Below are positions 12,135 through 36,044 of a stretch of 64,000 bases of DNA, piece after piece. The stretch is from Prorocentrum cordatum. Lineage: Eukaryota. Each line of letters begins with the position of its first letter. The stretch's first letter is position 1. The stretch is taken from NCBI GenBank assembly GCA_963575745.1, contig CAUYUJ010000114.1:682001-746000 (forward strand), in the 5' to 3' direction. Under the pieces are notes generated by a model. That model had not been told where the DNA came from. It saw nothing but the letters and a program-made list of their open reading frames with translations, and made no database searches. The position numbers and the translations under genes were made by a program.

Positions 12135-12558
12135 TTGCTCGTCATCCCGTTCCTCCTCATCCTGCTTCTTGATTTCGGATATGTCATGCTACCACTGCGC
12201 TCATCATCTTTGCGTCTGTGATCCTCGTCGTGTTGTTCCATGCGTCCTTTTCACAATTTCCACCACATTATCCTCCGTTGCCGTTCTGGCCCGCCATCTA
12301 CCTCGTCACTCTCCTTCGTCTGCATGTCCTTATTCTTTTCCGCTCTTTTTTCGCCTCCCTCTGGTTCGATTTCCGCTCTTCGTCCACTTCGTTCATTCGT
12401 TTCCAACCCCCCTTCCTTTCAAGTTCTCCGCCGTCCAATCACGTCGCGTCGTCCGCCGCCGCTATGCTCAAACCACCCCGCGCCCGTGGGATCGCCCGCG
12501 AGCACCGGTGCAGCTGGGCCCGTCGCGGCCTAACGCGCGCCTGCGCCATCGTCTTGCA

Positions 12559-13704: not shown

Positions 13705-14695
13705 TTTTGGGACCGAATAACTCCCCAGACGATTTGGTTTCGGAGTAGATGGCTCCGCAGCAGCAGCGGGGCTCGAATGAAGGGCGCGTTGCATTTCTGC
13801 AGGGGCGCGCGCGTCGGCCGCCGAGATCGGGGGCGCTCGTGCAGGCGCCGTGGCGCGATCTTCGTAAAGAAGTCTTCCCTCTCCTCCCTGTCCCCCCATC
13901 CCGCCGCCCTCAACGTCGGCTCCTCGCCGCCCGTTCCTCGTCGCTCCACGCCTGTTCGTTCTCCTCCAATTTCCTCTCCCGCTTCCTCGTTCTCTCCTTC
14001 CCATTTTTCCCTCCATCCCATTGCATCCCTGGCACCCCAGCGAAGTTCGCAGTTCGAAGTTTGAAGTTCGGAGTTCGAAGGTTGCAGTTTGAATTTCGAA
14101 GCTTCGCACTTCGAGGTTCGATCTTCGAACCTTCGTCATCTCGTCGTCGTAATCGTCGTCCTCGTTCGTCGTCGTCGTTCCTCGTCGGCGTCGATTGTCG
14201 TTGTCGTCGTCGCTCGTTGTCGTCGTCGCCGTCGTCGTCGTGGTCGGCGTCGTCGTCGTCGGTCGTTGTCGTCGCTAGTCGTCGTCGCTGGTCGCCGTCG
14301 TGGTCATCGTCCTCGTCGTCGTCGTCGTGGTCGTCGTCGCCCTCGTTGTCGCCGTCGTGGTCATCGTCGTCGTCGTTGTCGTGAAACGCCCCACGTAGGA
14401 GGAGCAGAGAAGGGAGTAAGGAGAAATGAGCACGGTGGAGGGAGGAGGGAGGATTGAACAGGAAGAGGAGGGTACAGATGGAGGTAGAAGGGATGAGGTA
14501 GTTCAGAAGTGGGAGCAGCAGACTGGCGCAATGGGAAAAGCCATGTGAGTGCAGGGAGGGATGGAAATGCGATAAAGTGAAGCCGCAGCCGTTGCAGGTC
14601 TGCCTCCCGCCGCGCCCGCCCGCCTCCGCGACTGGAGCCGCGCAGGAGCCTCTGCCGAAGTCTCCGCAGCAGCGGGGACTGCCAGAGGAGGCCCC
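13700..14695 (+). repeat. Diverged duplicate of 15555-16595 (upstream region and 5' end of ORF2)
   Basis: Colinear similarity from GTAGTTT..GG to GCCAGAGGAGGCCCCT, including the (GTC)n tracts; offset ~1855 bp. Confidence 0.85.
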
Positions 14696-16386
14696 TTCGC
14701 GGTTTTTGCGCCGGCATGGCGAGCATCGCGGGCAAGTACGACGTCGATGACTTCGAGCTCATCACGACGGAGGGCAGTGTTTGGCACTGGGCGACCATGG
14801 TTGTGCGGTTTCTCCAGTGGCGCAATCGTTGCCGCCACGCACGCGCCGTTGGAGTGAAGGGCCAGATGCTCGTCGACCAGGCGCGGCAGATGATGGAGGA
14901 GGCGCGCCGCACCGAGGAGATGGGCAAGATGACGCTTGAGATGTCGAAGAAGAAGGTGAAGGACATCCCAGGCAATATTCGGTACTTTTGCCGCCAGCCG
15001 CACCAGGAGAGCTGAGCGGCGATCGGGGCTGGGCCGATAGAGGAGGACGAGGAGGAAGAGGAGGGGGGATGAGGAGAGGAGGAGGAGGGGATGAGGAGTT
15101 GGAGGCAGCACGCGCACCCGCACTAAGAGCCGCCAGCCGCGCCCGTCTCCGAGCATGAAACCCGAGCTTGGCTGGAAGGGGGGAGGGCGGTAGCAGAAAC
15201 AGCGCAGGACAGGGATGGGAGAGGTCACGCATCCGCCGCATTAGCGGCGGTGGTACGACAGTTCTCATGGCGGCGCGGCGGTCGCTGAGAAATGGAGCAC
15301 GTGCGTGGGCCTGCGTGCGCTTAATTATGAGTGGCTCTCGTCCCCTCCCCTCCTCTTCCTCCATGAGATCTCTCTCCTGGTGCATATCCCCTGCCAGTGC
15401 TCGTCCTGCTCCTCTATCCGCCCCCCCTCGTCCGTTCCTGCCACCAGCCACATGGGGCGTTCTCAATCAACACCCCATTGAGTGTCCCCATGTGAAGGTT
15501 GCCCTTTGTCATGAGGGCGGACTCGCAAGAGCCGAGTGGCTGAAGAACTAATTAGTAGTTTGGGGTCCGAACAGCTCCCCAGACGATTTGGTTGTGGAGT
15601 AGGTGGCTCCGCAGCAGCGGGGCTCGAATTAAGGGCGCGTTGCATTTCTGCAGGGGCGCGCGCGTCGGCCGCCGAGATCGGGGGCGCGCGCGCAGGCGCC
15701 GTGGCGCGATTTTCGTTTTGAAGTCTCCCCTCTCCTCCCTGTCCCCCCATCCCGCCGCCCTCAACGTCGGCTCCTCGCCGCCCGTTCCTCGTCGCTCCAC
15801 GCCTGTTCGTTCTCCTCCAACTTCCTCTCCCGCTTCCTCGCTTTTCCTTCCAATTTTCCCTCCATCCCAGTCCGTCCCTGGCACCCCAGCGACGTTCGCA
15901 GTTAGAAGCTGGAAGTTCGGAGTTCGAAGATCGAAGTTTGAATTTCGAAGCTTCGCGCTTCGAGGTTCGATCTTCGATCCTTCGTCATCTCGTCGTCGTA
16001 ATCGTCGTCCTCGTTCGTCGTCGTCGTTCCTCGTCGGCGTCGGTTGTCGTCGTCGTCGTCGCTCGTTGTCGTCCTCGCCGTCGTCGTCGTGGTCGGCGTC
16101 GTCGTCGTCGATCGTCGTCGTCGCTAGTCGTCGTCGCTGGTAGCCGTCGTGGTCATCGTCCTCGTCGTCGTCGTCGTGGTCGTCGTTGCCCTCGTTGTCG
16201 CCGTCGTGGTCATCGTTCTCGTCGGCGTCGTCGTCGTCGTTGTCGTGAAACGCCCCACGTAGGAGGAGCAGAGAAGGGAGCAAGGATAAATGAGCGCGGT
16301 GGAGGGAGGAGGGAGGACTGAACAGGAAGAGGAGGGAGCAGGCAGAGGTAGAAGGGATGAGGTAGTTCAGAAGTGGGAGCAGCAGA

Positions 16387-19116
16387 GTGGCGCAAGGGGA
16401 AAAGTCATTTGAGCGCAGGGAGGGATGGCATTGCGATAAAGTGAATCCGCAGCCGTTGCAGGTCTGCCCCCCGCCGCGCCCGCCCGCCTCCGCGACGGGA
16501 GCGGCCCAGGGCATGGAGCAGCCTGGCGCGACTGGAGCCGCGCAGGAACCTCTGCCGAAGTCTCCGCAGCAGCGGGGGCTGCCAGAGGAGGCCCCTGATG
16601 CAGTTCCGCATGGAATGGCAGATCCAGCACCGGCCTCCGCAGCAGCGGGGGGGGAGGTTGCAACGAAACTGCGGTCATTGTTTTCGTCGATGTCTGATGC
16701 CCAGGAAAGCGTTTCGAAGACCCTGCTGGTTGCCCAGGAATTGATGCAGAATGGCCTGATCGAAGATGCGCGGAAGTTAACGGCCGCCGCCAACCGCCTT
16801 GTAGTCATAACGGCTGAGGAGGCGGCTTGCGCAGCAGCGGGGGCATCCGTGGAGCCAGGCGCCGCCACAGTGGTAGTCGAGCCTGGACAGGGTGGCTCCG
16901 ATGACCCGAGACCGAGATCTCCCTGCGCGACTAATTGGCAACATCGGCAGGCTCTGATCGCAGCGCGCAAACTGCGTGAAAGCTCCTCCGCAGCAGCGGG
17001 GGCCCGCGTGATCAAGACTCTCGCCTTGACCTCGAAGGCTCGGTCGCCAGCGCTTCCTGTCCAAGAGGGCTTCCCAGAGGAAGGCCGCCCGCACTTCCCA
17101 TCGGAAGAGCGCGGCCCGAGCCATTCCAAGCCTCTTGTGCCCCTGCTGTACGACGACGAAGACCAGGTGCAGGAGGGGCAGACAGAGGCGCGCGTGAATC
17201 TGGCTTTTGCTTCCCTCGTCCTGCGCGCGGGCGCCTCCCTGTCGGATTGGGTCGCAGCTGTCAGGGACAGGCGCGAAGGGGTCGTCTTAGTCTCCTTCGA
17301 GCCTGGTGCACGCATCAATCGCGATCGGCGGAAGCAACATCTCGACGATCTCATCCGCCATAGTGGCTTCCACGGGGAGGTCGCGCGCGAGTGCGTTGGG
17401 GCTCTCCTCTGGGTTCCCGAGCGCGTCGAGCAGTGCGAGGTGCTTCGCTGGCACTGCCACGGGAAGTTCCTGGTTCAGGCCTGGTCGGTGACCCTGGCAG
17501 CGGTGGCTCACAATCCGAAAGCAAAGGAAGGCAAACTCTCCATAGCAGTGGGGGGCGTGTTCTTCCGACACCAGACGAGCCTCGCGGGACAACCGTGGCC
17601 CGAGAACTTCCGCAACGGGCTGCGGAACCTGGTGTTGTGGAACCGAGTGCGTATTCTCGCTGGGATCTTTGACGCAGGCAGGGAGGATCTTTCGGAGCTG
17701 CTCAGAAGTTGCGGCGCGTCTGGTACAGGCGTACTCGGCTTGGCTTTGTGGTGTCCGACAAAAGGTTGCCACGTGACGCACCCGCACTACATCGTGATTC
17801 TTGGCCCCGCTCAGGTTCGCGAGTGCCCTGCGGGCGGGCAGCCTGATCTGCCGCACTGGTTGAATCAGGATTCCCAGCCTCCGCAGCAGCGGAGGCTCCT
17901 CACCAGCCTGCAGTACCGCCAGTTGGATTGGGTGGCGCGTCCGACCTGGGTCAGGCTCACGGACGCGGAGCGCAAGGAGCAGGATACATATGACTGGCCG
18001 CACTTGCACAGGGTGATCCACAAGGCCCAGGATGCGAACCGCCTCACGGAACATTGCCACACATTGTTCGTTTTTGTAGAAGCCAAGAACAGGAAGTCTG
18101 GCAAAGGCGCCGCGGCCAGGAAGAAGGATCGGAAGCGGGAAGCCAAGTGGGAAAAACAGCGGGGAGAGTGGGCGGAGACAGAACCCGAAGCAACAGCCTC
18201 AGCAGCAGCGGAGGCGCACGGAGACCAGGAGGAGGCGGAGACAGAATCTGAAGCAGCAGCCTCCGCAGCAGCGGGGGCGCACGGAGCCCAGGAGGAGCTT
18301 GAGGGCGACGAGGCCCCGCTCTGGATCGACTCCTGCAGCCTCACGCCGCCCCAGGACGAACAGAGCAACCCTGACAGAGGTGAGAGGGAGGAGAAGAAGG
18401 AGAAGGAGAAGATGAAGAAAAACAAGAAGAAGAAGAACAAGAAGAAATATATCAGGAGCAGAACCCCAAAGAGGAAGAAGCCCTCGCAGCAGCGGGGGGG
18501 CAGCCGTTCCACACGCAGAAAGCGGGAGCAGAGGAGCAAAGACCGAATGAGGAGAGTGCCCTCGCAGCAGCGGGGGCGCAGCCGCTCCAGACGCAGAGGG
18601 CAGGAGCAGAGGGGGCGCAGCCGCTCCAGACGCAGTGGGCAGGTGGAGGGCGGCGACCGCAGGGCGGCGTGGGCAGGGCGGTTCCTGCCCGCGCCGCCCG
18701 CGCACCCCCCCCACACAGGTCAGGTGATGCTGAGGCCGAGGGCATGGCGCCCGCTCCTCCCAGGCCAGATATGCCGTCCGCCAGGCATGCCGCCAATGAT
18801 GCCACCACCACCGCCATTTCCCCCGCGTGGAGGAGGACGCCGCGGGGCCCCCCCGCTGGAGGAGACACCGCACCCTACGCCACCGCGGCTCGTCCCGAGG
18901 CAGCCGCCGCACCCTCCGCCGAAGCGGCTCCTGCCAAGAGAGTCGCAGACGCCCCGCCCTCTGGCAGCGCCGCTCGTCCCGAGGCCGCCGCCGCAGCCTC
19001 CCCCGCCGCAGCTCCTCTCCAGGGAGTCGCCGCTTCCTGCGGACACGCTTGCGTTCAACAGTGACGCGTTCGAGGCATTGTCGCGGCGCCGCAGCCCTTC
19101 AAGCGACTCCAGCTGA
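16387..19116 (+). CDS. Cargo ORF2 (~870-909 aa): degenerate EEP-like central domain with K/R-rich and Pro-rich C-terminus
   Basis: Long open frame, first ATG at 16513. LRNLVLWNRVRILAGIFD and HCHTLFVFV align by eye with LATILQDNSVDILCGDFN and AHYPLLFQM of the EEP cargo protein. Confidence 0.7.
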   Translation: MAQGEKSFERREGWHCDKVNPQPLQVCPPPRPPASATGAAQGMEQPGATGAAQEPLPKSPQQRGLPEEAPDAVPHGMADPAPASAAAGGEVATKLRSLFSSMSDAQESVSKTLLVAQELMQNGLIEDARKLTAAANRLVVITAEEAACAAAGASVEPGAATVVVEPGQGGSDDPRPRSPCATNWQHRQALIAARKLRESSSAAAGARVIKTLALTSKARSPALPVQEGFPEEGRPHFPSEERGPSHSKPLVPLLYDDEDQVQEGQTEARVNLAFASLVLRAGASLSDWVAAVRDRREGVVLVSFEPGARINRDRRKQHLDDLIRHSGFHGEVARECVGALLWVPERVEQCEVLRWHCHGKFLVQAWSVTLAAVAHNPKAKEGKLSIAVGGVFFRHQTSLAGQPWPENFRNGLRNLVLWNRVRILAGIFDAGREDLSELLRSCGASGTGVLGLALWCPTKGCHVTHPHYIVILGPAQVRECPAGGQPDLPHWLNQDSQPPQQRRLLTSLQYRQLDWVARPTWVRLTDAERKEQDTYDWPHLHRVIHKAQDANRLTEHCHTLFVFVEAKNRKSGKGAAARKKDRKREAKWEKQRGEWAETEPEATASAAAEAHGDQEEAETESEAAASAAAGAHGAQEELEGDEAPLWIDSCSLTPPQDEQSNPDRGEREEKKEKEKMKKNKKKKNKKKYIRSRTPKRKKPSQQRGGSRSTRRKREQRSKDRMRRVPSQQRGRSRSRRRGQEQRGRSRSRRSGQVEGGDRRAAWAGRFLPAPPAHPPHTGQVMLRPRAWRPLLPGQICRPPGMPPMMPPPPPFPPRGGGRRGAPPLEETPHPTPPRLVPRQPPHPPPKRLLPRESQTPRPLAAPLVPRPPPQPPPPQLLSRESPLPADTLAFNSDAFEALSRRRSPSSDSS

Positions 19117-20585
19117 CGGCGCGCGGCTGCGGAGACCTCCGCAGCAGCGGGGGTGGTCTCCGCAGGGGTGATCTCCGCAGCAGCGGGGGTTAGCATAATT
19201 AAGAGATCTGAGGCCCGGGCTCGGCGCGCGCGCGAGGAGGCAGGCGCTCGCATTGAGCGGCTGAAGAAATCGTGGTCGTTGTCGCCGTGCTCGTCGTCGT
19301 CGTTTGCTTTTTGCTGGGGGGGAAAGGGGGGCGAGCAAGAGGAGGAGGAGGAGGAGGGGTCCTGCAGGGGCCAGGACCGACACCGGGACCGGGACCGGGA
19401 CCAGGGGGAGAGCGGGACCGGGACCGGGAGCGGGACAGGGACGGGGAGCCCTGGACGAGCAGCAGAACCGACCACGGGACCGGGACCGGGACCGGGGCCG
19501 GGACCGGGACCGGGACCGGGAACGGGGGTGCTGGTCCCGGTCCCGGTCCCGTGGTCGGTCCTGCTGCCCGTCCTGGGCTCCCCGCCCCTGTCCTGCTCCA
19601 TGTGTCACCTCTTTGTCCCGCCCCCAATCTCTGCCGTGCCGTTTGGGTTCGAGATCGCCAGCCATGAGGGTTAGGAAGCCCGACACAAGGATCGGGCGAT
19701 GCCGCGTCGGCGAGTTGAGGAATAGGAAACCCGACACAAGGACGGGACGATGCCGCGTCGGCGAGAAGAGGGGTTTTCGGAAACCAGACCACAGACCTCA
19801 TTCGAGCAAGCGCGCTGGGGCGGCGGCGCAAGGCGAGCTCCAAGAAACAAGCCCTCGCAGTAGCGGGGGCTGCTGTAGCCCTCGCAGCAGCGGGGGCTGC
19901 TGTCTTGGAGCGTGGTGGGTTGTGGGATGAGAAGACTGCTCGGAGGATAGGCGTGGAAGATGACGATGGGTTCGATCAGGCACTTTGGTACCGCGACCAT
20001 TGGGGCAACTGGTACAAACTAGGGTCCAAGATGCCGCCAGTCGGCAGCTCCTGGCAAGAAGGCGCCGACCCCCTTCGCATGTAATTACGGGGCGGATGAA
20101 CACGACAGTGCCCCCACATGGTTGATTGTACGGTCCTCAGGATGACCGCGACATCCCGAGCGCACAAGGGGAACGCTCCTCCGCAGCAGCGGAGGGATGT
20201 CGCGAGAATTTCGCCGAGGGGGGGTGACCTCGGCGGAGGGGCGCACTCGCGCGCGCGCGGGGGAGCGCGGTTTCGCGCGTCGCGTGCGGCATCGCATGCG
20301 GTGTGGGGGAAAACACGACATCTGTGCTGTCACCTGTGTCCTGCTCTCTCCTTTGCTTCGCTTCCCCTTGCACTCCCTCCTGCAACCTCCCGCCCGTCAT
20401 TATGTCTTTGTAGTGATCATCGCTTCCATACACGCAACTCTCACAGCGCCCCTTTCTCTCACAGATGGGTTCGGGGTGGGCAACCTTTCTCTCACACAGG
20501 GGGGGGCCGATGTATCAATGCTTCTCCTGTTCAGGCGGATGTGCGCGTATCGAAAAACTGAGAAGGCCGCGTCGACCCGCCGTTC

Positions 20586-20630
<45 letters not shown>

Positions 20631-20851
20631 GTCTCTCTCTCTCTCTCTCTGTCTCTCTCCCTCTATCTGCCTTTCCTCTCCTTCTCCTTTTGCTCAAGTG
20701 CGGGCAGGCCGCGGATCCGTGAGGCCCCTCCTTCTGTCCGCGCGCGCGACAGGCACTCGTGCTTTAAGCGGGGCCCCGCAGCAGCGGGGGCAACCGTCGC
20801 GGAGCATCTGTTTGGGAAGCTGCCCCCGCAGCAGCGGGGGCGCCTGGATAG

Positions 20852-23344
20852 ATGTCCGAGGACATCAAGTCAGGTCCCCTGAATGATGCCGCCACGTTGC
20901 GCAGCCGCTATGCCTTGAAGGACTCCGAGGGCCAGCGGCTGAAGGCCAAAATTTCCTTGGAGGATATCTGCGTCCACCCGCAGAACAGAGGTGGGACGTA
21001 CCCCTCCGCTGCCAGAGTGGTTAATCTCCTGTGTGGCATTCTGAAAGACAGGTTCCTCTTGAACGAGGCGCAGCACGAAGCAGTGGTTGTTCAGGAACTC
21101 CCTGCGGGGAAGAAGGCCGATTACGAGCGCCTCCATGGCAGGCCGTGCACGGCGCACGCGGACCACAACTTGCAGAAAACGAAGTCCGTGGAGGCTCTAC
21201 GCTCGGCGTACACAAGCTTGTCAACGTTCAACTACGGGGCGCTGAGCCACTGCACCCTAACCCTTGGTCTGCTGAACCTCAAGCACGGCGCAGTGTGGGT
21301 CATTCCCGAAGACCACAAAGGATGTGGTTTGGAGGAGTTCCAGACAGGTACAGGTGGTTCCTGGGATATCCCAAAAATGCGTCGCGCACCGAAGTTCACA
21401 GAACTCATGGACGTGCTCGATAACGGTTTGCTTTGCGAGGTGCTCTCGTGGGAAATTCACTTCGATGCCGTCTTCGCGCAAGGCCCCGCGATCATTTCCG
21501 CGGCCCTGAACGACCCACAGGGAAAAGGTGTGACCTCTCACGAAATCGAGGTCCTGACGTCCGTCGCTGATTTCGTCGCCACCGCAGCAGCGGCGGGCAA
21601 GAAAGCATCGTGCGGATCTGAGACAGGACACCCCGTGAATATCTCGTACGAAACTGTTCTCAAGGCTTGCGCGCAACGACATCCCGAGTACGCCAAGGCC
21701 AAATGGTTCGAGGACATGTTTACTTTCGTCATCAACGTGGGGGCCGCATCAGGGCAGCTCATACCGCAAATTCTAGATTATGATCGACGTTGGGTGGATC
21801 ACAAAATACGTTCCCTGGCACCAGCCACCTGGAGCGTTCTCAACCAACTCCCCATAGATTGTCCCCATGTGAAGGTAGCCCTTGTCATGAGGGCGTACTC
21901 GCAAGAGCCGAGGTGCGGACAATGCCCCGCGCCGGAAACGGCTTGGGGACACAGCGAGGGCAACAGTCGGATACAGGAGCTCAATTCTTTGTTGGGGTAT
22001 GTCCGTCGCATATTGGCCCCCGCAGCAGCGGAGGCCCACGGGGAGGAGAAGAGCGCGACTTTGACCGCGGGGGCGGTTCTGACTGCGACGGACACCTTCT
22101 ACCAGGTGTACGTAAGGGTGAAGGCTACCAAACCTCGTCGGGAGGCAGTTGTGGAGGCCGTGTGCGAGACAGTGCGTCCGTACTATGCTGAAGTACGCGA
22201 GGCCTGGCAGAAAATGGAAAAGAACGCACAGAAAGAGTTCCCGCCCCCCCCTGCGCCGTGGACCGACAAGTTGCCCGCGGCCCCCGAGAATCCCGCTGGC
22301 CCTCGCAGCAGCGGAGGTGGCGAGGGCTCTCGCCCGCAGCCAGTATTGATAGAGTTCAACGAAGAAGACAAGCCTCTGAACAGGCAGATGTCTGAAGTGT
22401 CCAAGCCCGTGAACAGCCTGATGGTGGTCCCAGTGAAATCGTGGCACGCTTCGGCTCCGTCTGGCAATCTCGACACAGACAGGTGGCACCAAGCAAGCAT
22501 CGCGGAAGTCATGACTGGCTTCCATCGTCACGCGGACACTTGCGCCCAACCCGTCCAGATGCAATATGACGTTCAAGCCAAGAGTGTCCATGTGGTGGCT
22601 ACTGGGGACATCGCCGAGGGGAAACTGATGCTCTTCCCTTGCTGCCCCACCGCGAAGATTTTCCCGAAAGTCTCGAGCAATCCGCGGGCAGTGGAGGTGC
22701 TAGTCGGTGAGAAACGTCCGACTCCTGTCGAGAAAATGGAAACATATTGGGCACAACCTGATTTCAAATTACCAGAGCTGGAGCTCAAGCCCGCGCCGCA
22801 GGAAGCGGCCTCCGCAGCAGCGGGGGCTGCACAGGGCGAGGCGCCCGTGGGTCCGCAGCTCGACGAGGCGGCCCCCGCAGCAGCGGCGCCTGCACAGGGC
22901 GAGGCCGAACAGGAAGAGAATCCGTACCAGTTTAAGTTCGGAGGTACCGAGTCCTTGCACTTCTTTTGGGGAGTTGAGAGGATGACACCAGAAGAACTTG
23001 CCCGAGCCCAGCTAGTGCAGGGACAGGAGCACTGGAAGTTCAACGTTGCACTTCGACCACTAGAGTTCCAGACAATGACAAAGTGCCCGCCAGCCGCCCC
23101 CCTCCGCGTCTGCAGCGTGCTTGTCCCGTGCATGCACAACACGGTGCCGCTGGTGCGCGGAGATCGGCTGATGCTGCAGATCACAAAGGAGAAGAGGGCC
23201 ACCGACACCCACAAGGAGAAGCAGGCATGGCAAAAGGAGCAGAAAGAGCAGGAGAAGAAACGGAAGAAGGACGCCGAGGAGGGACGGAAAACCCCCAAGA
23301 GCGGCAAGATGACAATCCCTGGCCAGGGGGCCCACTTCGTGTGA
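20852..23344 (+). CDS. Cargo ORF3 (830 aa): N-terminal ParB/Srx-like domain and C-terminal SET-like domain
   Basis: Intact ATG-TGA ORF. ISLEDICVHPQNRGG...VVNLLCGILKDRF...YGALSHCTL resembles the ParB N-terminal fold. VVATGDIAEGKLML and VPCMHNTVPLVRGDRLML resemble SET N- and C-terminal motifs. Confidence in the ORF is high; the domain calls are moderate. Confidence 0.75.
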   Translation: MSEDIKSGPLNDAATLRSRYALKDSEGQRLKAKISLEDICVHPQNRGGTYPSAARVVNLLCGILKDRFLLNEAQHEAVVVQELPAGKKADYERLHGRPCTAHADHNLQKTKSVEALRSAYTSLSTFNYGALSHCTLTLGLLNLKHGAVWVIPEDHKGCGLEEFQTGTGGSWDIPKMRRAPKFTELMDVLDNGLLCEVLSWEIHFDAVFAQGPAIISAALNDPQGKGVTSHEIEVLTSVADFVATAAAAGKKASCGSETGHPVNISYETVLKACAQRHPEYAKAKWFEDMFTFVINVGAASGQLIPQILDYDRRWVDHKIRSLAPATWSVLNQLPIDCPHVKVALVMRAYSQEPRCGQCPAPETAWGHSEGNSRIQELNSLLGYVRRILAPAAAEAHGEEKSATLTAGAVLTATDTFYQVYVRVKATKPRREAVVEAVCETVRPYYAEVREAWQKMEKNAQKEFPPPPAPWTDKLPAAPENPAGPRSSGGGEGSRPQPVLIEFNEEDKPLNRQMSEVSKPVNSLMVVPVKSWHASAPSGNLDTDRWHQASIAEVMTGFHRHADTCAQPVQMQYDVQAKSVHVVATGDIAEGKLMLFPCCPTAKIFPKVSSNPRAVEVLVGEKRPTPVEKMETYWAQPDFKLPELELKPAPQEAASAAAGAAQGEAPVGPQLDEAAPAAAAPAQGEAEQEENPYQFKFGGTESLHFFWGVERMTPEELARAQLVQGQEHWKFNVALRPLEFQTMTKCPPAAPLRVCSVLVPCMHNTVPLVRGDRLMLQITKEKRATDTHKEKQAWQKEQKEQEKKRKKDAEEGRKTPKSGKMTIPGQGAHFV

Positions 23345-23899
23345 TCCCGCCGCAGCAGCGGGGGGTGCGCGAAACGGAGCGGCAGATGACAGCGGTCGAT
23401 GATCCACCCGTCGCAGCCCGCAGCCGTCAGCTGGAGGGGAGGAGGAAAAGGGCGGGGAGAGGAGGTCGAAGAGGGAGGGGGGAGGGGGGCAGCAGAAACA
23501 GCACCAGACAGGGATGGGAGAGGTCACGCATCAGCCGCAGTAGTGCCGGTGGTACGTCAATTTTCATGGCGGCGCGGCGGCCGCTGAGAAATGGAGCAAG
23601 TGCGAGGGCCTGCAAATGCGGAAAATGTGAGTGCCTCTCGTCCCCTCCCCTCCTCTTCCTCCATGAGATCTCTCTCCTGGTGCATATCCCCTGCCAGGTC
23701 TCGTCCTGCTCCTCTCCCTCTATGTTCGTCCTGCCCTCCCCTCGCGCCTCGCCTCCGTCTCCGTCCCCCCTCGTCCGTTCCCGCCTCCCTCCCGTGTCCT
23801 GTTTTCCTCTCTCCGTGCTCATCGTCCTGCTCATCGTCCTGCCGTCCTGTTCGCGGGACGCTCTGTGGGACAGGGGGGCGGTCGAAGCACACAAGGCCG

Positions 23900-24087
23900 A
23901 CCCCCTCTGTGACAGAGGGGGTCCCGCGCTTGTCCGCGGGACCCCCTCTGTGACAGAGGGGGTCCCGCGCTTTTCCGCGGGACCCCCTCTGTGACAGAGG
24001 GGGTCCCGCGCTTTTCCGCGGGACCCCCCTCTGTCACAGAGGGGGTCGGGTGGAAAAGCGCGGGACCCCCTCTGTCACAGAGGGGGT
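23900..24087. repeat. Central array of the same palindrome (5 copies, with degenerate copies on either side)
   Basis: Centres at 23911, 23952, 23993 (G centre) and 24035, 24076 (C centre); period 41-42 bp. Confidence 0.9.
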
Positions 24088-24445
24088 CGGGTCGTGCGTT
24101 TCCGCGCGCCCTCCTCTGTGAAACAGGGGTGGTCGTTCGATCAGGGCGCCCCCCCCCTGTGGGACAGAGGGTCGGTCAGAGCACACAAGGCCCCCCCTCA
24201 AGGGGCAGAGGGGCGGTCAAGGGACAGGGAAGGCAGCTGTGCTCGTTCGGAGAGAAGGAGGGGGATGGGTTGGATGAGATGGAAAGGATCTCGTGGAGGG
24301 AGCATGATGCGGATGAGGAGTAGGAGGATCTGTTCGAGACGAGGAGTCCGCCTTCCATAGCCGTTTTCAGGCGGTTCACTTTTGAGGGGGGGCGACACCT
24401 AGGACGCGCGCGCCTTCGCAGCAGCGGGGGCTTGCGCACGGCGGC

Positions 24446-25402
24446 ATGAAACGCAAGGCAGAGGACGCATGGCGGGAGGTCGCTGTCGGGAAAGCAGCGC
24501 GCCAAGATGGCGCGAGCATGGGGGTGATCTGCGCGACGGGCGGGCTGTGCCGAAGTCACGAGGGAGCAGCGGGATTTGCTCTGGAATGCGAGGAGCGCTG
24601 TGTTGTCTTGGGCGGCGAGATGAGCAATGAAGCCTTCGTGCCCGTCGGAAAGCACCGCCTGTGGATGCTCAAAGTGGTCGGTGGCCACAGTGCCGTGAAG
24701 GGCGCCTTGAGCGAAACAAACTTGTTAGAACAATTGTATGAGAAGCTTCGCGCTGGAGAAGGATACAACGTGGATGAAGCGGCGACTCCTGTGAAAGAGG
24801 CCCCCGCAGCAGCGGGGGTTGCAGCAGGGTCTCCCGCAGCAGCGGGAGAAAAAGGTCGGGATCCCATGGCGGATCTCCTTGGCACCGTCAAGGCCGCATC
24901 GAAAGCGAAGAAAACCCCTGAGAAACAGAAAGGGTTTCCTCGAGGCACGCTCTGCAGAGTAACCATGCCGATGTCTCCTAAGCCAGATGAGGCCGACACG
25001 AAAGAGATTTGTGTGTATGAGAACAAATATGGGCAACTACTCGTTCATAGTCAGGACCTGCCTTGGCTTCTGCATTACCTGTGCGAGGAGAGCCAGGGCA
25101 AAAGCGTCCCCGAACCCAACGACGACGACGAGGTCGACGCTTTGGACGAGAAGCGCCCGTGGACCACCAGGTGGTGCCCGTCTGGGATGTGGACACTGGA
25201 GGTCAAAGGAGGGCCAATGGCAGGCCGAACATGGGCCTCCAGGATTCAGGATCTGAACGAGGAGAAATGGTCCACAGGCGTGGCGTTGACGGAAGTGACG
25301 ACGCCCTTGAAACAGTCCACCCGTGCGCAGCAAAAGCAGGTTCTTCTAGCGTTCTTGGAGGACGTGGTCCAGAAAGCCATCAAACAGGACACACAGCAGT
25401 GA
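24446..25402 (+). CDS. Cargo ORF4, hypothetical protein (318 aa)
   Basis: Intact ORF with complex composition; a partial diverged copy lies at 26309. Confidence 0.7.
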   Translation: MKRKAEDAWREVAVGKAARQDGASMGVICATGGLCRSHEGAAGFALECEERCVVLGGEMSNEAFVPVGKHRLWMLKVVGGHSAVKGALSETNLLEQLYEKLRAGEGYNVDEAATPVKEAPAAAGVAAGSPAAAGEKGRDPMADLLGTVKAASKAKKTPEKQKGFPRGTLCRVTMPMSPKPDEADTKEICVYENKYGQLLVHSQDLPWLLHYLCEESQGKSVPEPNDDDEVDALDEKRPWTTRWCPSGMWTLEVKGGPMAGRTWASRIQDLNEEKWSTGVALTEVTTPLKQSTRAQQKQVLLAFLEDVVQKAIKQDTQQ

Positions 25403-25677
25403 TGCCCTCGTTATCCGCTCGCTGGCGCGCGCCGCAGCAGCGGCGCGCTGACCGCTACAACGGCTTTTTTTGTGCAAACAGACTCGGTGCATGCACCGCA
25501 CCAGCGGCGCGCTGACCGCTGAGGTGGATGCCTGCGGGTTCCTGTCGACTGGACAGGGGTTAGGGCACGCGCGGGGGATCGCGAGCCTGCGGCTCTCCAG
25601 CGCTCGCGCGCTAGAGGACAAAAAGGAACTCGCGGAATCTGGCGAGGACGGGGCGGAGGGGTTGGGACCAGTAGGAT

Positions 25678-25711
<34 letters not shown>

Positions 25712-25771
25712 AGGAGGAGCAACAGCAGCAGCAACATCACACTAGCAGCACCGACAGGAGGATCATTGCGA

Positions 25772-26140
25772 GGATGCGGCCGTTTGCTTGCCCTGCGGCG
25801 CTGGGCTCGAGACAAGAGGGCGGCCGCGTGCGCGCGCGCATGGCTTCCGCATCGTGGCCGCCGCAGCCGCTCCGCCCCCAGACCCAGGCGACGCTCGCCC
25901 TGCAAACGCGCCTCTGCGGGTCGGGCACGACCGCGAGGTCAACGAATGTGGAGTTTTTATAGCAACACGACAAAACTAAAGACCCCGACAGAGTGCTCAT
26001 GAATCCACGGAAACTACAGAGACCAATATTCGGATTCGGGTAATTACGTTATGCGCCGCAGCAGCGGCGCGGCTTGCCATTATGAATATGGCAAACGCAC
26101 ATGGAAGAATATTCATTTATGCTCGCAGTGGCCGTGGAAA
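25772..26140 (+). repeat. Degenerate duplicate of the transposase gene 5' region (27650-28010)
   Basis: GATGCGGCCGTTTGCTTGCCCTGC...GCTCGCAGTGGCCGTG occurs in both; offset ~1878 bp. Confidence 0.85.
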
Positions 26141-26308
26141 AGCGACCACAAGAAGTGGTTAGGTTTTGGAGTCCGATGAGAAGTAGGAGGATTTGTTCGA
26201 GACGAGGAGTCCGCTTTCCATAGCCGTTTTCAGGCGGATCACCAGTGAGGGGAGTTGACACCTAGAACGCGGGCGCCTTCGCAGCAGCGAGGGCTTGCGC
26301 GCGGCGGC

Positions 26309-26800
26309 ATGAAACGCAAGGCATCGGAAACATGGCGGGATGTCGTTATCGGGAAAGCAGCGCGCCAAGATGACGCGAGCATGGGGGTGCTCTGCGCGAC
26401 GGGCGGACTGTGCCGAAGTCACGAGGGAACATCGGGATTTGCTCTGGAATTTGAGGAGCGCTATGTTCCCTTTGGCGGCGAGGAAAACCTAGAAGCCTTC
26501 GTGCCCGTCGGAAAGCACCGCCTGTGCATGCTCAAGGTGGTCCGTGGTCTCAGTGCCGTGAAGGGCGCCTTGAACGAAACGACAATGTTAGAGCAAGTGC
26601 TTGGGAAGCTTCGCGTCGGAGAAGGAGGCAACGTGGATGAAGCGTCGACTCCTGTGAAAAACGCTTCCGCAGCAGCGGGGGTTGCAGCAGGATCTCCCGC
26701 AGCAGCGGGAGAAAAAGGTCGGGATCCCATGGCGGATCTCCTCGGAACCGTGAAGGGCGCATCGAAAGCGAAGCAGGTGGCGGCGCGTCGCCAACCATAG
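26309..26800 (+). pseudogene. Truncated duplicate of cargo ORF4
   Basis: MKRKASETWRDVVIGKAARQ...ADLLGTVKGASKAK parallels ORF4, then a short insertion introduces TAG. Similarity is lost after ~26845. Confidence 0.8.
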
Positions 26801-27731
26801 AAAACCCCTGAGAAACAGAAAATATTGTCTCGAGGCACGCTCTGCCTCTCGCTCCGTGCGGTCGTCTTGGGCGGCGTCGGGCCTCCGCTGACTGATTACA
26901 TGATGCATATATGTATATATTGTGTATGTATGGTGTGTCGACGTATATGTATGTACATACGTATATGTGTGTATTTATATATATGTATGTATATATAACA
27001 CGGTCGCAGGGGCGTGGCCCGCGGCCCAGGGCGGGGCCCGAGACTCTGGGACAGGACATAGGGCCTCATCATCGTAGGATGCTCATCATTCTCATCATCG
27101 CCATGATGGGGGGGGAGGAGGGGACAGCTACCAGCTGCGCGCTGGCGCCACCGCCGCTCCCCCGCGCCCGCTGGCGCATCCGCAGTGCGGCTGCGGGAGG
27201 GGCTGCGCCTCAATTCCTGCAGAGGCGGCCTGCAGGGATGTTGCACTTTTGGCGTCTAGTACAAACGCCCGAGCGGCCCGCTTTTTTTTGGGGGGGGCTC
27301 TTGCTTCACGGTGGAAGAGGAGACTATCATCATCCCCCGTGCCGCGTTCGCCTTCCCTCGACGACGATGTCGACGACTTCCTACATTCTGGCCTTGTTTT
27401 CTGGGGAGTGTTCTCGGAGTCGTTCGGGGCGTTCGTTCGTGTGCGCATGCTTCTGAGTTTTCGGCGCGTCGTTCGGGCCGCTCGTCCTGGTGTGAGTCGT
27501 TCGGGCCCCTCCTCACCAGCCCATCTCACAGCAGCAACCCTCGCGAAGCATGCCGACGGTCGTGTTTTTTCAGGCGTGTGTCCGCTGGTCCCCGCATATC
27601 TCCCTTGTTCCTCGTTCCTCCCGCCCCCTTGTACATCCTCCTTGTGGGGGGATGCGGCCGTTTGCTTGCCCTGCAGCGCTGGGCTCGAGACCAGAGGGCG
27701 GCCGCGTGCGCGCGCGCATGGCTTCGGCATC

Positions 27732-29192
27732 ATGGCAGCCGCAGCCGCTCCGCCTCCAGACCCAGGAGACGCTCGCCCTGCAAACGCGCCTCTGCGAGTC
27801 GGGCACGACCGCGAGGCCAGCGAATTTGTGGAGTTTTGGTACCAAGAAGACAAAAAGAAAGACCCCGACTTCGTGCTCATGAACCCACGGAAACTAAAGG
27901 GGACAATATTCGGATTCGGGTACGTTATGCGCCGCAGCAGCGGCGCGGCTTGCCATTATGACTCTGGCAGACGCATGTGTAAGAAGATTCATTTCTGCTC
28001 GCAGTGGCCGTGTCCCAGCGACCATCGTCTGGCGGACGGTTCCGTGGACTACAATAAGTGGTCAGACTTGCAAGCGCCCTGGCATTTAGTGCAATGCGCG
28101 GGCGGGTGGCCCGCAGGAGCGGGAGCCCCCGCAGCAGCGGAGGCGCCGGCCGAGGCGTGCGAGGCCCCTGCTGAAGCGGCAGCGGAGCCGTCGGTGGGCC
28201 CTGCTGAAGGCCCCGCAGCAGCGGGGCCGTCAGCGGAGGCGTGCGTGGCCCCTGCTGAAGTGGCAGCGGAGCCGTATGTGGGCTCTTCTGACGGCCCCGC
28301 AGCAGCGGGTGCGTCAGCGGAAGCGTGCGCGCCTCCTCCTGAAGTGGCGGCGGCGCCGTGCGCGTGCCCTTCTGCAGAGCCCGCCACAGCGGAGGCGTCC
28401 GTAGGTCCTGCTGGCGCGCCTGGCGCCGACGCAATCGCCGAGGCCGCTTCCGCAGTGGAGTCTGTCTTGAAGGACTCCGCGGCAACAGCAGCTCTCGCAG
28501 CAAAGGAGGTTGCCCCTGTCGCTTTCCCCCAACCCGCCCCGCTTGCTGTTCGCGACGTAGCGGAACCCGTGCTTCCAGGGGCGGAAGTTGCGGCAGTTAC
28601 CGCCTGTGAACAGACAGCCGCGACAGCAGGCGCTGCGGTTGCCCCTGCAGGCGCCCCCGCAGTAGCGGGGGCGCCTGCAGGGGCACTTTCAGAACAAGGC
28701 CAGAGGTGCTTCGAGAAATTGATGAAGCTGTCGCGCAGTATTCGCGGAAGGCCGGGGGGAGGCCGAGAGTGGATAGGATATTCTGCTTTCGTAATCTTTG
28801 CGCTGTTGCGGAAGGTGCGCGTCTACGTGTGGGAAGGACGCAACAGAGTCGACCTTTGCAAAGCTGTCTTGCCGCCGTGGAAACTAGAGGAGTTAACCCG
28901 CGAGCCTGCGGTGGACGCGATCGCGTGTTGCGCCGTCCCCCGAGACTCGGGGCCACCGGACTGGGCCCCCGTGTCGGAGGAGTATCCTTTGTTTCGATGC
29001 AATCATTTTATCGCAGGCGTCTCCACCGACTTTGTGGATTTCACGGGAGATGCTTCGACGGTGGACGGTTTCTATTCGGCTCTCGGTGTGTTCGTCGTGT
29101 CCACAGTCGCAGACGGGGACTGCGGTTTGGATTGCATGTTGCAGATGACCCAGGAGGTTTCCACGCGAGAGTCTCGCAGGGAGCTCCGCCAG
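27732..29192 (+). CDS. Transposase gene exon 1 (small Cys/His region, Ala/Pro/Glu repeat, OTU-like domain)
   Basis: In frame from ATG 27732. Ends ...TVADGDCGLDCM...RELRQ at CAG|GA and splices in frame to DIADYI at 29367. Confidence 0.7.
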
Positions 29193-29366
29193 GACAGTTG
29201 CTCTCTCCGACCACCCTGATCCTTCGCTTCCATCTCTGCTGCCCCCACATGCTCTTCCCCTCCTTGTCTCCCCATTCTGCCTTCATGCCTCTCCCATCCC
29301 GCCCTTCTCTCCCCTCGTGCCCTCCCCACCGAGTCTCCTTGCCCCTCCTCCATGCCCGCCCGCCAG

Positions 29367-32300
29367 GACATCGCGGACTACATCGTGCAAAGGGCGCGGC
29401 TGGCGTGGTTCCTCGACGCGATGGTCCTGACACAAGAAGTCACGCAGGATGACGTCCAGGAGCTTCGTCGCCTGCAGAGCGCCTTAGACGACGAAGAACT
29501 TGTCCCGCAGCCTGGCCACGCCGCCCCTCCGAGAGCACAGGGCGTTGCCGCCGCAGCAGCGGCGGCGCCACCTGAGGACTTGGCCGTGGTGGAAGTCGAC
29601 GCCGAGGCTGTCTGTCAGGAGCTCGTGCAAGCCATCCAATGGTGGACAGGACTGACAGACGCTGCGTGCGCCCTGGACGTCGCTCGGGAGTTGATGCCCG
29701 CAGAGCGGGAGGAGCAGCTCTTGAGGTACAGGAACCGCGGCTGCGAGCGCAAAGCCCCCGCCCAAAACAAGAAGCGCGTGGTGGTCCCGTCGCTCCTGTG
29801 CTCGAGGATGGAGATAGCGGGTGCTTTCGACGAGCACATGCGCTCTTTAGGCTGGACGCCTGGAGACCGCTTTCCGTATGGAGGGGCGCGTTCATTCATG
29901 GATGCGTGGGACTGGGGTTCCATGTCCCGTCTCCCTCTCAGGAAGCGCACGCACGTTGTGCGGCGCTGGCACAAGGCTTTTCTGTCGTCGAAATACGCCT
30001 CCGCAGTAGCGGAGGCTGTTCGGCAGCCGCGGGGACACGAGAAGCAGCACGGGCAGGGGCGCCTCCTGAAGTGGAAAGGGCGGAAAAGGATACCACAACA
30101 GGGACAGGGCCCAGCTCGAAAATGCCCTTGGTTGCGGCAAGCTCTGTTTGAATGGTGGAGTTCCATTCGGCACAGTGTGGATTGGAAGATGATCAAAAGT
30201 GGACTGCGAAGTACCCAAAGAGAGCCAGCGAAGATAGCAAGGTTCACGCAAAGCATGCTCCAGACCAAAGCGTTGGAGCTCATGAGCGAGTACGTCACGC
30301 AGCAGCTGCGGATCGGGCAGCGACCCGCCGCCGTGGAGTTGAGGTCGCGCTGGTGGGCCTCCTGGCGCAAGGAATACGGCCTCAGCATGCGGTACCCGAA
30401 CAGGAAGTACAAGTGCCCGCTGCCCGTCTTGGAAGAGCGCCTCGAGCGAGGCTGGCTGAACGTGTTTAGGGTGCGCGCCGCGTGCGTGCTACTCAACGAG
30501 CAGGATCCCGAGATGGAGAACTTCGACCAGTCGCCTTTCCACCACAATGAAACAGGATCAGCTGGCGTGAGGACCCTCGCAGTAGCGGGGGTCGAAGTGC
30601 CACTGGTGGAGTGCCACGGCGCGGTGCGGGAGCGGTGGACGGCCAATTTCATGACAATGAGCGACAAGGATCGACTGCGGAGAGAAGGCCCCCCACCGAT
30701 GGAGTGCACGTTCAAGGCGGAGGGGGGAGGAGAGAAGTTGAGGCCGCGCCTGCTCGAACACCTTCGGCGCCGAGGGTTCGGCAGATGGGTGTCGGCGACC
30801 ACCAGCACCAAGGGGTCTTACCGGACACCGTGCGTGCTCGCGTACCTGGACCGCCACCTCCCTCATCTGCCAGAGCCTCCGCAGCAGCGGGAGTGGAGAA
30901 TTATGATGGCGGATGATCATGGCCCTCACTTGTCCCCGCTTGTGAGTAAGCTATGTTGGTCTCGAGGGTACGTGTTCATCCCGCACGGGGGCGGCGTAAC
31001 CCCAATCCTCCAAACTGTGGACACACATCTGAATCAACACGCCAAGCGCGAGTACATGAAGAGAGAAGGAGCCGCGCTGCTGAGAGCCATGAGGCTGGGC
31101 CAGTGCGTCCCACAGCTGGACAAGTTAGAATGCATTGACTTGATGGTGGAAGTGATGTCCCAAATGAGTCTTCACTTGGCTGCGGCAGACGGGTACTGGG
31201 AAACTGGTTTCAAGGCAAATCTGTGGGATGCGGACTTGGACGCGCGCATATGCAAGGAGGCAGGCCATTTCTGGAGAAAGTTGGGGATGCGTAAGAAGGT
31301 CGCCGCCGCAGTAGCGGAGGTCGAAGAAGAGGTGCAGGCGGGGCGCTTGAGATGGACTTACAAAGACATCATGCGATTGGTCCTCCCGCACCCTCGACGC
31401 GGCCACTGCGACGACGTGTTCGCAAACCTTGGAGACGACGCGGCTCTGGACGAGGGCGACAAGATTTGGCATGGCATGGAGGGGGCGGAAGACGCAGCCG
31501 AGGGTCTCCGCAGCAGCGGGGGCACTGAGGGTGGCAATTCCGTCGACGCCCTCGAAGGAGATGAAGATGATGGGAGCGAGGACGACGACGGGTGGAGCGC
31601 CGCTGGCGAGTTTGACTACGAATGGGCCAATCAAAGTCTCACCGCAGCAGCGGCGGGGGAGAGCGCGCTGGAGGCACCGCCTGGCCTGTCGACGTCTCGT
31701 ATGGAAACTGCGGAGCAGACGTCTGAATTGATGAGAACGTATTCGTCGATCGCTGAGGAGTTGCGCAGCTGGGGCGACATCGCGGGGGCCACGTTCATGG
31801 AGACGCAATTACGGAAAGAACGGAGGCGAGTGCGTGAAGTGTCGAAGGAAGATCCTGGGGTTCAGCGAGCCCTCGCAGCATACGAGGACGCCCGCGAGGC
31901 GACGCTCAGAAACGAGAAACGACAGCGGGATGTCGAGGCGCGGCGCAGAGAAGAGCTAACCCGCCTGGGGGACGACGTAAAGAAAGCGCGCAAGCTGCTG
32001 AGGACACAGCAAGCCAAACTCTTAGACGCAGAGGCAGCCATAGATATCAAACACAGGATGAAGCATGTCGGGTTATCCGAGCTGGGCGCGGGCCTTCGCA
32101 GCTGCGGAGGCGTGGCGGGTCGAACGTCGAGGTACGACGCGCTGAATCGCCTTGCGATTTTGGGTTCTGGGCTTTCTGCAGCTCAGCGGTCAGATTTTGA
32201 CTGGTTTCGGCGGGAATGGGACGCCGCTGGCATGGAGGACTTCGGTGGAAAGTGGCCGGAGACGTTTGCCACATGGTTGCAGAACGTCATAGACGAGTAC

Positions 32301-32405
32301 TTGGGGGGCAACCCGAGAGCTTTCAGCATGTTTGTGCACAGTGAGACGCGACGCCGTCTGTCTGGCTCCCTGGCGCTTGCGCTCCCTGCAGCTGGGGGCC
32401 TCTGA
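29367..32405 (+). CDS. Pogo-like DDE_1 (DD35D) transposase, exon 2
   Basis: Motifs NFDQSPF, IMMADDHGPH and GVTPILQTVD, with 35 residues between D2 and D3. Preceded by a CENP-B-type HTH-like region (LRQALFEWW...SRWWASWRKEYGLSMR) and followed by acidic and coiled-coil tails. Confidence 0.88.
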   Translation, partial: DIADYIVQRARLAWFLDAMVLTQEVTQDDVQELRRLQSALDDEELVPQPGHAAPPRAQGVAAAAAAAPPEDLAVVEVDAEAVCQELVQAIQWWTGLTDAACALDVARELMPAEREEQLLRYRNRGCERKAPAQNKKRVVVPSLLCSRMEIAGAFDEHMRSLGWTPGDRFPYGGARSFMDAWDWGSMSRLPLRKRTHVVRRWHKAFLSSKYASAVAEAVRQPRGHEKQHGQGRLLKWKGRKRIPQQGQGPARKCPWLRQALFEWWSSIRHSVDWKMIKSGLRSTQREPAKIARFTQSMLQTKALELMSEYVTQQLRIGQRPAAVELRSRWWASWRKEYGLSMRYPNRKYKCPLPVLEERLERGWLNVFRVRAACVLLNEQDPEMENFDQSPFHHNETGSAGVRTLAVAGVEVPLVECHGAVRERWTANFMTMSDKDRLRREGPPPMECTFKAEGGGEKLRPRLLEHLRRRGFGRWVSATTSTKGSYRTPCVLAYLDRHLPHLPEPPQQREWRIMMADDHGPHLSPLVSKLCWSRGYVFIPHGGGVTPILQTVDTHLNQHAKREYMKREGAALLRAMRLGQCVPQLDKLECIDLMVEVMSQMSLHLAAADGYWETGFKANLWDADLDARICKEAGHFWRKLGMRKKVAAAVAEVEEEVQAGRLRWTYKDIMRLVLPHPRRGHCDDVFANLGDDAALDEGDKIWHGMEGAEDAAEGLRSSGGTEGGNSVDALEGDEDDGSEDDDGWSAAGEFDYEWANQSLTAAAAGESALEAPPGLSTSRMETAEQTSELMRTYSSIAEELRSWGDIAGATFMETQLRKERRRVREVSKEDPGVQRALAAYEDAREATLRNEKRQRDVEARRREELTRLGDDVKKARKLLRTQQAKLLDAEAAIDIKHRMKHVGLSELGAGLRSCGGVAGRTSRYDALNRLAILGSGLSAAQRSDFDWFRREWDAAGMEDFGGKWPETFATWLQNVIDEYLGGNPRAFSMFVHSETRRRLSGSLALALPAAGGL

Positions 32406-32689
32406 GAGGCGCGGCCCGCCGCAGCAGCGGCGAGGCGCGGGGTGTGAGTTCGGGCAGCAGCCGCTGCTCTTCCACCTGCCTGCGACTGAGGTGCCGCGTG
32501 CGCGCGCGGACGTAGCGCAGGCCTTGCGCAGAAGAAACAGGGAGGAGGGGGGGCGGGGGAGGAGGTGAGAGGAGGGGGAGAGCAGGCAGGGGGAGAAAAC
32601 CACGCGGGTGTCGATCACTCCGCCTCTCCTCCTGCTCTCCCCCCTCCTTCTCCCTGATCTCTCTTGGTCATTATATCATTCCTCTCTCT

Positions 32690-32905
<216 letters not shown>

Positions 32906-33034
32906 CCCGCCCTTTCCTTCCCTATCCGCCCCGTCTTCCTCCTCTTCGCCCCGCCCCCCTCCTTCCACCGCCGTTTCGGCCCCAGGAGTTCGGCTCTGAC
33001 GGCCGCCCCCCCTGCAACGCGGGGGCAGGGAGCG

Positions 33035-35016: not shown

Positions 35017-35202
35017 GTCGCGGCGGGGGGTTGAAAGGGGGAGGGGGGGAGAGGGGCGGTGGAGCACGGGGAGGGCAGGAGGGAGGAGAGGGAATGAGGA
35101 ATAGGCTGAGCAGGACGAGGGATGACATAAGGAAATGAGTGTCGGGAAGGGGCGGGAGTTGACAGGGAGGGGATATAGAAATAATTATTTATCACCCCCC
35201 AG

Positions 35203-35959: not shown

Positions 35960-36044
35960 TCCTCCGTGACAGAGGGGGGGCATCTCAGACCCCCTCTGTG
36001 ACAGAGGGGGGGCATCTTAGACCCCCTCTGTGACAGAGGGGGGG
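35960..36044. repeat. Right subterminal palindrome array (3 copies)
   Basis: Centres at 35968, 36000 and 36032 (period 32 bp). Confidence 0.9.

Follow-up and report, generated by a model that had tools for sequence, protein, structure and literature searches.

A central array of end-type palindromes in a 24-kb pogo-type transposable element of Prorocentrum cordatum: a possible aid to the pairing of distant ends

The 64-kb stretch of DNA analysed here, hereafter the window, comes from the genome of a GC-rich marine protist, Prorocentrum cordatum, and contains a 24-kb transposable element in which one and the same 19-nt palindrome is arranged in three arrays: one beside each of the two terminal inverted repeats (TIRs), and a third in the middle of the element. 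We suggest, with a probability of roughly one in three, that the central array assists in pairing the two ends of the element, a reading that is built on a single copy and on analogy with known systems. To our knowledge, end pairing over tens of kilobases in very long cut-and-paste transposons is understood only for phage Mu. Should an internal array of end-type motifs prove to be regular and positioned in a multi-gene pogo-like family, it would represent the first eukaryotic built-in aid to synapsis, whereas an array specific to this copy would be simply an internal tandem repeat.

The limits of the element are set by its TIR pair (Table 1), 31 nt long and 100% complementary; terminal inverted repeats are a feature of the Tc1/mariner/pogo (IS630-Tc1-mariner) superfamily. 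A search of the 64-kb window at up to 3 mismatches returned no third copy of the TIR, with both of the two matches being the termini themselves. The outermost bases at both element ends are TA, which is compatible with a TA target duplication; TA being self-complementary, such a duplication is indistinguishable at the element ends from the opening dinucleotide of the TIR itself. All recognisable genes and long open frames of the element lie on the + strand, and the same polarity is seen in a hairpin motif, CCGCAGCAGCGG, of which the window holds 43 copies against 0.03 expected: all 43 are on the + strand and within 12612-35727, that is, inside the element, with 22 lying to the left of the central array and 21 to the right. 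Library searches gave little to name the genes by, with Pfam returning no credible match for either 10 or 140 ORFs (only scattered hits below the cut-offs), PHROGs none for 11 ORFs, and NCBIfam sub-threshold hits only for the same 11. A scan of the window for bacterial promoters and terminators was uninformative, and a search for relics of the dinoflagellate spliced leader gave two matches, each with 3 mismatches, which is not above chance. In the listed titles and opening lines of abstracts on dinoflagellate TIR transposons, no such family or array is described.

Table 1. Coordinates within the window of the element and of its principal features.
Feature	Position	Strand	Remarks
Whole element	11992..36085	+	24,094 bp, midpoint 24038.5; bounded by the perfect TIR pair
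Left TIR	11992..12022	+	31 bp; 31-nt inverted repeat, 100% complementary to the right TIR
Left subterminal array	12024..12135	.	Three good copies and one decayed copy, period 31-32 bp
Gene 4	20852..23344	+	830 aa, conserved; stop 555 bp before the first perfect central unit
Extended central array	23862..24218	.	About nine units, period 40-44 bp, outer units decayed
Perfect core of the central array	23899..24088	.	Five palindromes (central bases G, G, G, C, C) with palindromic, CpG-rich spacers; 91% matches in Tandem Repeats Finder
Gene 6	24446..25402	+	318 aa, conserved; first gene downstream of the central array
Pogo-type DDE transposase (predicted)	29352..32405	+	1017 aa, long C-terminal extension; 39 homologues
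Right subterminal array	35959..36045	.	Two perfect copies and one near-perfect or decayed copy, period 32 bp
Right TIR	36055..36085	-	31 bp; perfect partner of the left TIR

The palindrome was sought as the pattern CCCCTCTGTSACAGAGGGG, with up to 2 mismatches, throughout the 64-kb window, with 100 shuffles providing the expectation. Ten matches were found against 0.00 expected, nine of them perfect, and all are confined to the three arrays: beside the left TIR (starts at 12025, 12057 and 12088, the last with 1 mismatch), in the middle of the element (23902, 23943, 23984, 24026 and 24067), and beside the right TIR (35991 and 36023). Successive copies are thus spaced by 32 and 31 bp at the left end, by 41, 41, 42 and 41 bp in the centre, and by 32 bp at the right end, and Tandem Repeats Finder gives corresponding units of 31 bp repeated 3.5 times, 41 bp repeated 4.6 times and 32 bp repeated 2.7 times. 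With a looser 15-nt core and up to 3 mismatches, 19 matches are obtained against 2.47 expected, 14 of them inside the three arrays, and decayed copies lengthen every array: at the left a copy centred at 12128, in the centre copies at 23871, 24120, 24163 and perhaps 24206, and at the right one at 35968. The central base of the palindrome is G on the + strand in every terminal copy at both ends, so that, judged by this base, the two terminal arrays are direct and not inverted copies of each other; in the middle array it is G at 23911, 23952 and 23993, and C at 24035 and 24076. These measurements bear out the preliminary description, which had reported the palindrome at both ends at a spacing of 31-32 bp, five central copies of this terminal motif at 41-42 bp, and a flip of the central base from G to C between the copies centred at 23993 and 24035.

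The three arrays share an identical 19-nt core, and their spacers are unrelated in both sequence and length, with those of the termini measuring 12-13 nt and differing between left and right, and those of the centre measuring 22-23 nt and being CpG-rich and palindromic. This combination of an identical core with unrelated spacers points to selection on the core and not to recent copying of whole units between the arrays, and argues for a palindrome that behaves like a selected protein-binding site. The perfect 9+1+9 symmetry implies a symmetric dimer, and CCCCTCTGTSACAGAGGGG is most likely the binding site of a dimeric protein encoded by the element, as far as can be predicted from its sequence. 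The periods of 31-32 bp and 41-42 bp correspond to approximately 3 and 4 turns of B-DNA, and since both are near whole helical turns, the sites of each array would lie on one face of the helix. The termini therefore carry two kinds of cis-element, namely the 31-bp TIR, found at the two ends only, and the palindrome, which recurs at the centre. Tc1/mariner/pogo transposases bind within the TIR, and palindromic sites are unusual for this superfamily, which is normally regarded as a single-protein system. Given that the centre lacks the TIR to which the transposase would be expected to bind, the palindrome may have a second protein or domain as its reader, and the two-tier design of the ends, in which a unique TIR is coupled to a common palindrome, suggests an accessory DNA-binding protein.

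More units belong to the central array than first described, with the five perfect ones being accompanied by about four decayed ones. Its palindromic spacers, together with the G-to-C flip, turn the centre into a near-perfect inverted repeat: positions 23897-24090, some 190 bp, form an inverted repeat of 94-95% identity, and for 23855-24225 as a single strand the prediction is a single long hairpin of -160.4 kcal/mol, a stability attained by none of 100 shuffles (z = -18.65). The perfect core is flanked by an imperfect direct repeat of 36 bp (~23862-23898 and ~24156-24192, score 52). Inverted symmetry extending from the array into its flanks was considered and rejected, the score of 25 comparing with a shuffle mean of 23. 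The array is intergenic, occupying a 1.1-kb spacer between the conserved + strand genes 4 and 6, and lies 360-550 bp upstream of the start codon of gene 6.

The position of the array depends somewhat on the reference point that is chosen. Relative to the midpoint of the element at 24038.5, the centre of the five perfect copies (23993.5) is offset by -45 bp, the symmetry centre of the inverted repeat (24014) by -24.5 bp, and the fourth copy (24035) by -3.5 bp; the array had been placed at the element midpoint (~24038) at the outset, and in this one copy a cis site is indeed found at the centre, 3.5 to 45 bp off in 24,094 bp. Under uniform placement, the chance of an offset of at most 45 bp is estimated at ~0.4%, a post hoc figure for which, with ~10 intergenic spacers available, a few per cent is the fairer estimate. 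Both arms have also changed in length. The left arm contains a tandem duplication in which 13700-14696 matches 15554-16596, and the right arm one in which 24312-24955 matches 26175-26845 and 25772-26148 matches 27650-28024, with a shift of ~1.85-1.88 kb and an identity of 85-89% in both arms; gene 6 has a decayed tandem duplicate at ~26249-26920. As each arm has an internal duplication of ~1.86 kb, arm lengths are evolutionarily labile; one duplication per arm leaves the array centred, and a single one would shift it by ~0.9 kb. The left arm further holds fragments of gene 4 and its surroundings, with 15433-15536 matching the gene at 21809-21912 and 15174-15415 matching its 3' flank at 23473-23715, each at ~89% identity, and these fragments look like filler from aberrant repair or rearrangement.

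Two proteins of the element deserve consideration as binders of the palindrome. The larger is the putative transposase, in which residues D392, D521/D522 and D557 are invariant among 14 aligned relatives, with 35-36 residues separating the last two. The query itself gave no Pfam match and an empty PDB profile search; among the named Atlas clusters, all of the nearest (scores 0.92-0.98) contain PF03184 DDE_1, and the relatives and the Atlas together provide a DDE_1-type catalytic domain of RNase H fold with a D, D, D/E triad. By these sequence features the 1017-aa frame is a pogo-type transposase. HTH_Tnp_Tc5 (PF03221) matches 3 of the 14 aligned relatives (best E 2.8e-4), with the protein of the window itself being unmatched, and occurs in 14-99% of the members of the transposase Atlas clusters, and a Tc5-type helix-turn-helix region may be present. 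No second transposase gene and no second copy of the element were found in the window. A charged, helical C-terminal extension at residues ~786-918 (31700-32100) resembles the Rad50 coiled coil at a level below threshold (E 0.0078), and the extension might mediate multimerisation. The preceding frame (27078-29219) ends in a DGDCGLDC motif that resembles those of cysteine proteases, and the following frame (32516-34399) has a GDFN motif like that of endonuclease/exonuclease/phosphatase enzymes, both noted by eye and both below library thresholds. A single stop codon stands between the frame 27078-29219 and the open frame 29220-32402, in which the transposase lies, and since some relatives of the transposase are ~1,480-1,505 aa long, fused forms may exist.

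The other candidate is the product of gene 4, which has 12 homologues at 25-80% identity with full-length coverage. The model of its N-terminal domain (pLDDT 81) was compared with known structures by VIA-align, and all 11 PDB chains with Z of at least 2 were of the ParB/Srx fold, namely PadC (5.9, the best), KorB (5.3), Atu1540, sulfiredoxin and the ParB-N of pNOB8 (5.0 each) among them. Foldseek returned nothing for this domain at E of 0.001 or below, a PDB profile search of gene 4 found nothing, no Pfam family was assigned to it, and Pfam ParBc matched 0 of 11 family members even at E 10; the Atlas places the protein nearer to DUF2828 and DUF6589 (0.93). In the model, residues 231-460 in the middle of the protein are helical, and the C-terminal domain is SET/PR-like, with Z up to 8.6 and 49 of the best 50 matches being of SET/PR type. 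This combination of a weakly ParB/Srx-like N-terminal domain, a helical middle and a SET/PR-like C-terminal domain fits no known family that could be placed. Gene 4 as the palindrome binder is a lead, no more, suggested by a model of its fold; an accessory protein such as the gene 4 product and the transposase are equally possible in this role. Gene 6, on the other side of the array, has 10 homologues at 47-76% identity.

The reading that we favour can be formulated as a scheme of end pairing, in which we infer the binding of a protein to the palindrome, the identity of that binder, and the communication between the centre and the ends. The palindrome would be bound by the pogo-type transposase or by an accessory factor, with the sites being presented in helically phased arrays, at intervals of three turns beside the TIRs and of four turns in the middle. 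The central array would serve as a third, internal docking platform, at which bound protein would join the protein bound at both ends, folding the 24-kb element into two loops of ~12 kb and bringing the TIRs together for cleavage; occupancy of the sites may also modulate the downstream block of genes that contains the transposase. In favour of end pairing, the palindrome is confined to three arrays with one core and unrelated spacers, and the central array is intergenic, phased, near-central and without a TIR relic. The decay of the outer units counts against it, as this is expected also of an unconstrained tandem repeat, and so do the separate TIR at the extreme ends, the rarity of palindromic sites in this superfamily and the lability of the arm lengths. 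A three-site synapse does not need the exact midpoint, the Mu enhancer lying near one (left) end and not centrally, so the centrality of the array would be either a coincidence or the sign of a different, topological mechanism. A bolder form of the proposal, which we regard as improbable, would make the array the eukaryotic counterpart of the central site of Mu, namely a protein-bound and cruciform-prone loop apex by which ends lying ~12.0 kb away are brought into register, with the lengths of the arms being kept equal by selection; the presence of one ~1.86-kb duplication in each arm, with the array still centred, looks like compensating changes in length. Dinoflagellate chromatin is unusual and nucleosome-poor, and a platform at a loop apex could be suited to it.

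Several other explanations have to be weighed against end pairing. The array could be the operator or promoter control region of the right-hand gene block, which starts at gene 6, includes the transposase and extends to the end of the gene series, with the palindrome binder repressing or activating the block, perhaps also acting on transcription at the left end, and the midpoint position following from the similar size of the two gene blocks. This is possible, if somewhat unlikely: the array does lie upstream of the start of gene 6 and downstream of the stop of gene 4, and the left-end array likewise precedes + strand genes, yet the right-end array has no gene downstream of it within the element. 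Runs of T4-T5 are present in the central spacers and in the first left spacer, and a TBP-like factor of dinoflagellates prefers TTTT. A precedent is given by TNPA of En/Spm, a protein that binds to subterminal repeats and has a regulatory function in the element as well (PMC2613891). An operator made of five to nine phased palindromes in a 190-bp inverted repeat would nevertheless be elaborate, and dinoflagellate promoters are so poorly defined that nothing diagnostic can be drawn from them. It is doubtful, too, that the array is a tandem repeat devoid of function, or an ancient relic, that would have arisen when a subterminal-type unit was copied inside the element, for instance in the faulty repair of a gap left by excision, and was then expanded by slippage and inversion, its position being due to chance. 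The 19-nt core is perfect in 5 of 5 central copies and the same as at the termini, with the spacers sharing nothing with the terminal ones, both array periods match whole helical turns, and the inverted repeat has been kept, which suggests constraint, long perfect inverted repeats being generally unstable in genomes. What speaks for a relic is that the element has undergone other rearrangements (the gene 4 fragments in the left arm and the two ~1.86-kb tandem duplications), that its outer units are decayed and its inner ones uniform, as in a tandem repeat that is turning over, and that the centrality was noticed post hoc.

A further explanation turns on gene 4, whose product, if ParB-like, would use the arrays as parS-like loading sites, with the central one as the main site, and would act by bridging or coating the element, in the service of compaction, silencing, self-marking or maintenance of an excised form, instead of effecting synapsis directly. 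ParB-family proteins bind palindromic sites, often beside their own gene, and gene 4 ends 555 bp before a palindromic array and has an N-terminal domain whose modelled fold matches ParB/Srx chains in all 11 cases with Z of at least 2. We consider this distinctly unlikely in view of scores that all remain below 6, an empty Foldseek search (E of 0.001 or below), ParBc matches in 0 of 11 members even at E 10, and an Atlas placement that points to DUF2828 and DUF6589 (0.93) instead; the ParB/Srx domain is moreover not itself the DNA-binding part, and the SET-like C-terminal domain is absent from ParB proteins. That the array acts as a structure, whether as a cruciform or single-strand hairpin, for instance one that resembles an origin or is prone to breakage, or as a long hairpin in an RNA transcribed across the spacer, is very improbable: the predicted single-strand fold, at -160.4 kcal/mol more stable than any of 100 shuffles (z = -18.65), and the 43 one-strand hairpins elsewhere, which make nucleic-acid structure a theme of the element, would fit, but the terminal palindromes are simple tandem copies without a large inverted arrangement, and no replication-initiator gene was recognised with Pfam, PHROGs or NCBIfam. 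Finally, the midpoint position and the end-type motifs could be taken for the junction of two fused elements of ~12 kb with abutted inner ends, the G-to-C flip resembling two facing ends. A relic TIR beside the array had been named in the preliminary description as the mark of such a fusion; both TIR matches are the termini and none is central, and the window has a single transposase gene. Facing-ends fusion would also invert one half, and the hairpins and genes are on the + strand to the left and to the right of the array alike; the central base in the right terminal array is G and not C, the central spacers are unlike those of both ends in length and sequence, and the two halves show no paralogy (best blastp E 0.49). 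Lacking a TIR relic and paralogy, and with a uniform hairpin polarity throughout, the array is not a recent junction of two elements, and we regard a fusion as unlikely, with the abutted-ends form meriting hardly any credence.

The end-pairing role finds partial parallels in several known systems. Phage Mu, of about 37-38 kb, has a central strong gyrase site (SGS) that promotes synapsis of the distant ends (PMC10052514), and, going by the title of a reference cited there, its enhancer (IAS) is an internal site that joins both ends in a three-site complex (PMC10052514). The likeness is that of a long transposable element with a cis site near its centre. The SGS differs in binding host gyrase and not a protein of the element, in lacking end-type motifs, and in acting via supercoiling of the bacterial chromosome, whereas the element described here repeats its terminal motif at the centre and resides in a eukaryote. 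Sleeping Beauty, which belongs to the same superfamily as the pogo-type transposase, has several transposase-binding repeats per end and, in addition, the HDR, an extra non-terminal motif resembling these repeats that enhances transposition, as set out in the available part of PMC5224488. The HDR is, however, a single 13-bp half-site inside the left IR and not an array 12 kb from the ends, and the sites of Sleeping Beauty are asymmetric direct repeats of ~30 bp in place of 19-nt palindromes. En/Spm (CACTA) offers a two-protein precedent: its accessory protein TNPA recognises reiterated subterminal motifs, which are cis-determinants of excision, and regulates the element (PMC2613891). That element belongs to another superfamily, and its motifs are confined to the subterminal regions, with no central array being mentioned in the available part of the source. 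In ParB-parS and KorB-operator systems of bacterial chromosomes and plasmids, a dimer whose subunits have an N-terminal ParB/Srx-fold domain binds a palindromic site near the gene of the binder, and dispersed sites can communicate; KorB and other ParB-fold chains are the sole structural matches of the gene 4 N-terminal domain, but the match is weak, with no Z above 5.9, and lacks sequence support, and a eukaryotic transposon with a SET-like C-terminal domain in the protein and no recognised partition ATPase is a different setting.

Relatives of the element were also sought elsewhere. The exact palindrome pattern gave 0 loci in viral contigs and 7 loci in metagenome contigs, each with one copy, on contigs of 33-67% GC. 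These seven resemble the window in the palindrome only (at most 37 nt aligned) and were rejected as relatives, being taken as chance or terminator-like matches. Protein-guided scans of viral contigs found nothing for gene 4 or for the transposase, and a transposase-guided scan of genome contigs found one 2.9-kb contig (L008, 1-2886), which is too short to include ends or centre. It sits in a bin labelled Kiritimatiellae bacterium and encodes a 38%-identical relative of the eukaryotic-type transposase, and it is probably a stray eukaryotic contig in a bacterial bin. Among public sequencing runs, 20 contain part of the central 9.9 kb (19100-29000) as near-identical words, with 7 containing at least half of its words and no RNA run being among those listed.

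Two further features of the element may be recorded. It contains two (CT)n microsatellites, at 20591-20668 and 32682-32904, the first 8.6 kb past the left end and the second 8.8 kb past the central array; these tracts, together with the early duplication present in each half, had suggested that the halves are ancient tandem duplicates, an idea that was rejected on the best protein comparison (E 0.49). As to the CCGCAGCAGCGG hairpins, several are located only a few bases from gene boundaries, for example at 23350, which is 6 nt past the stop of gene 4, and at 20826, ~15 nt before the start, and others fall within conserved coding sequence, where they encode runs of alanine.
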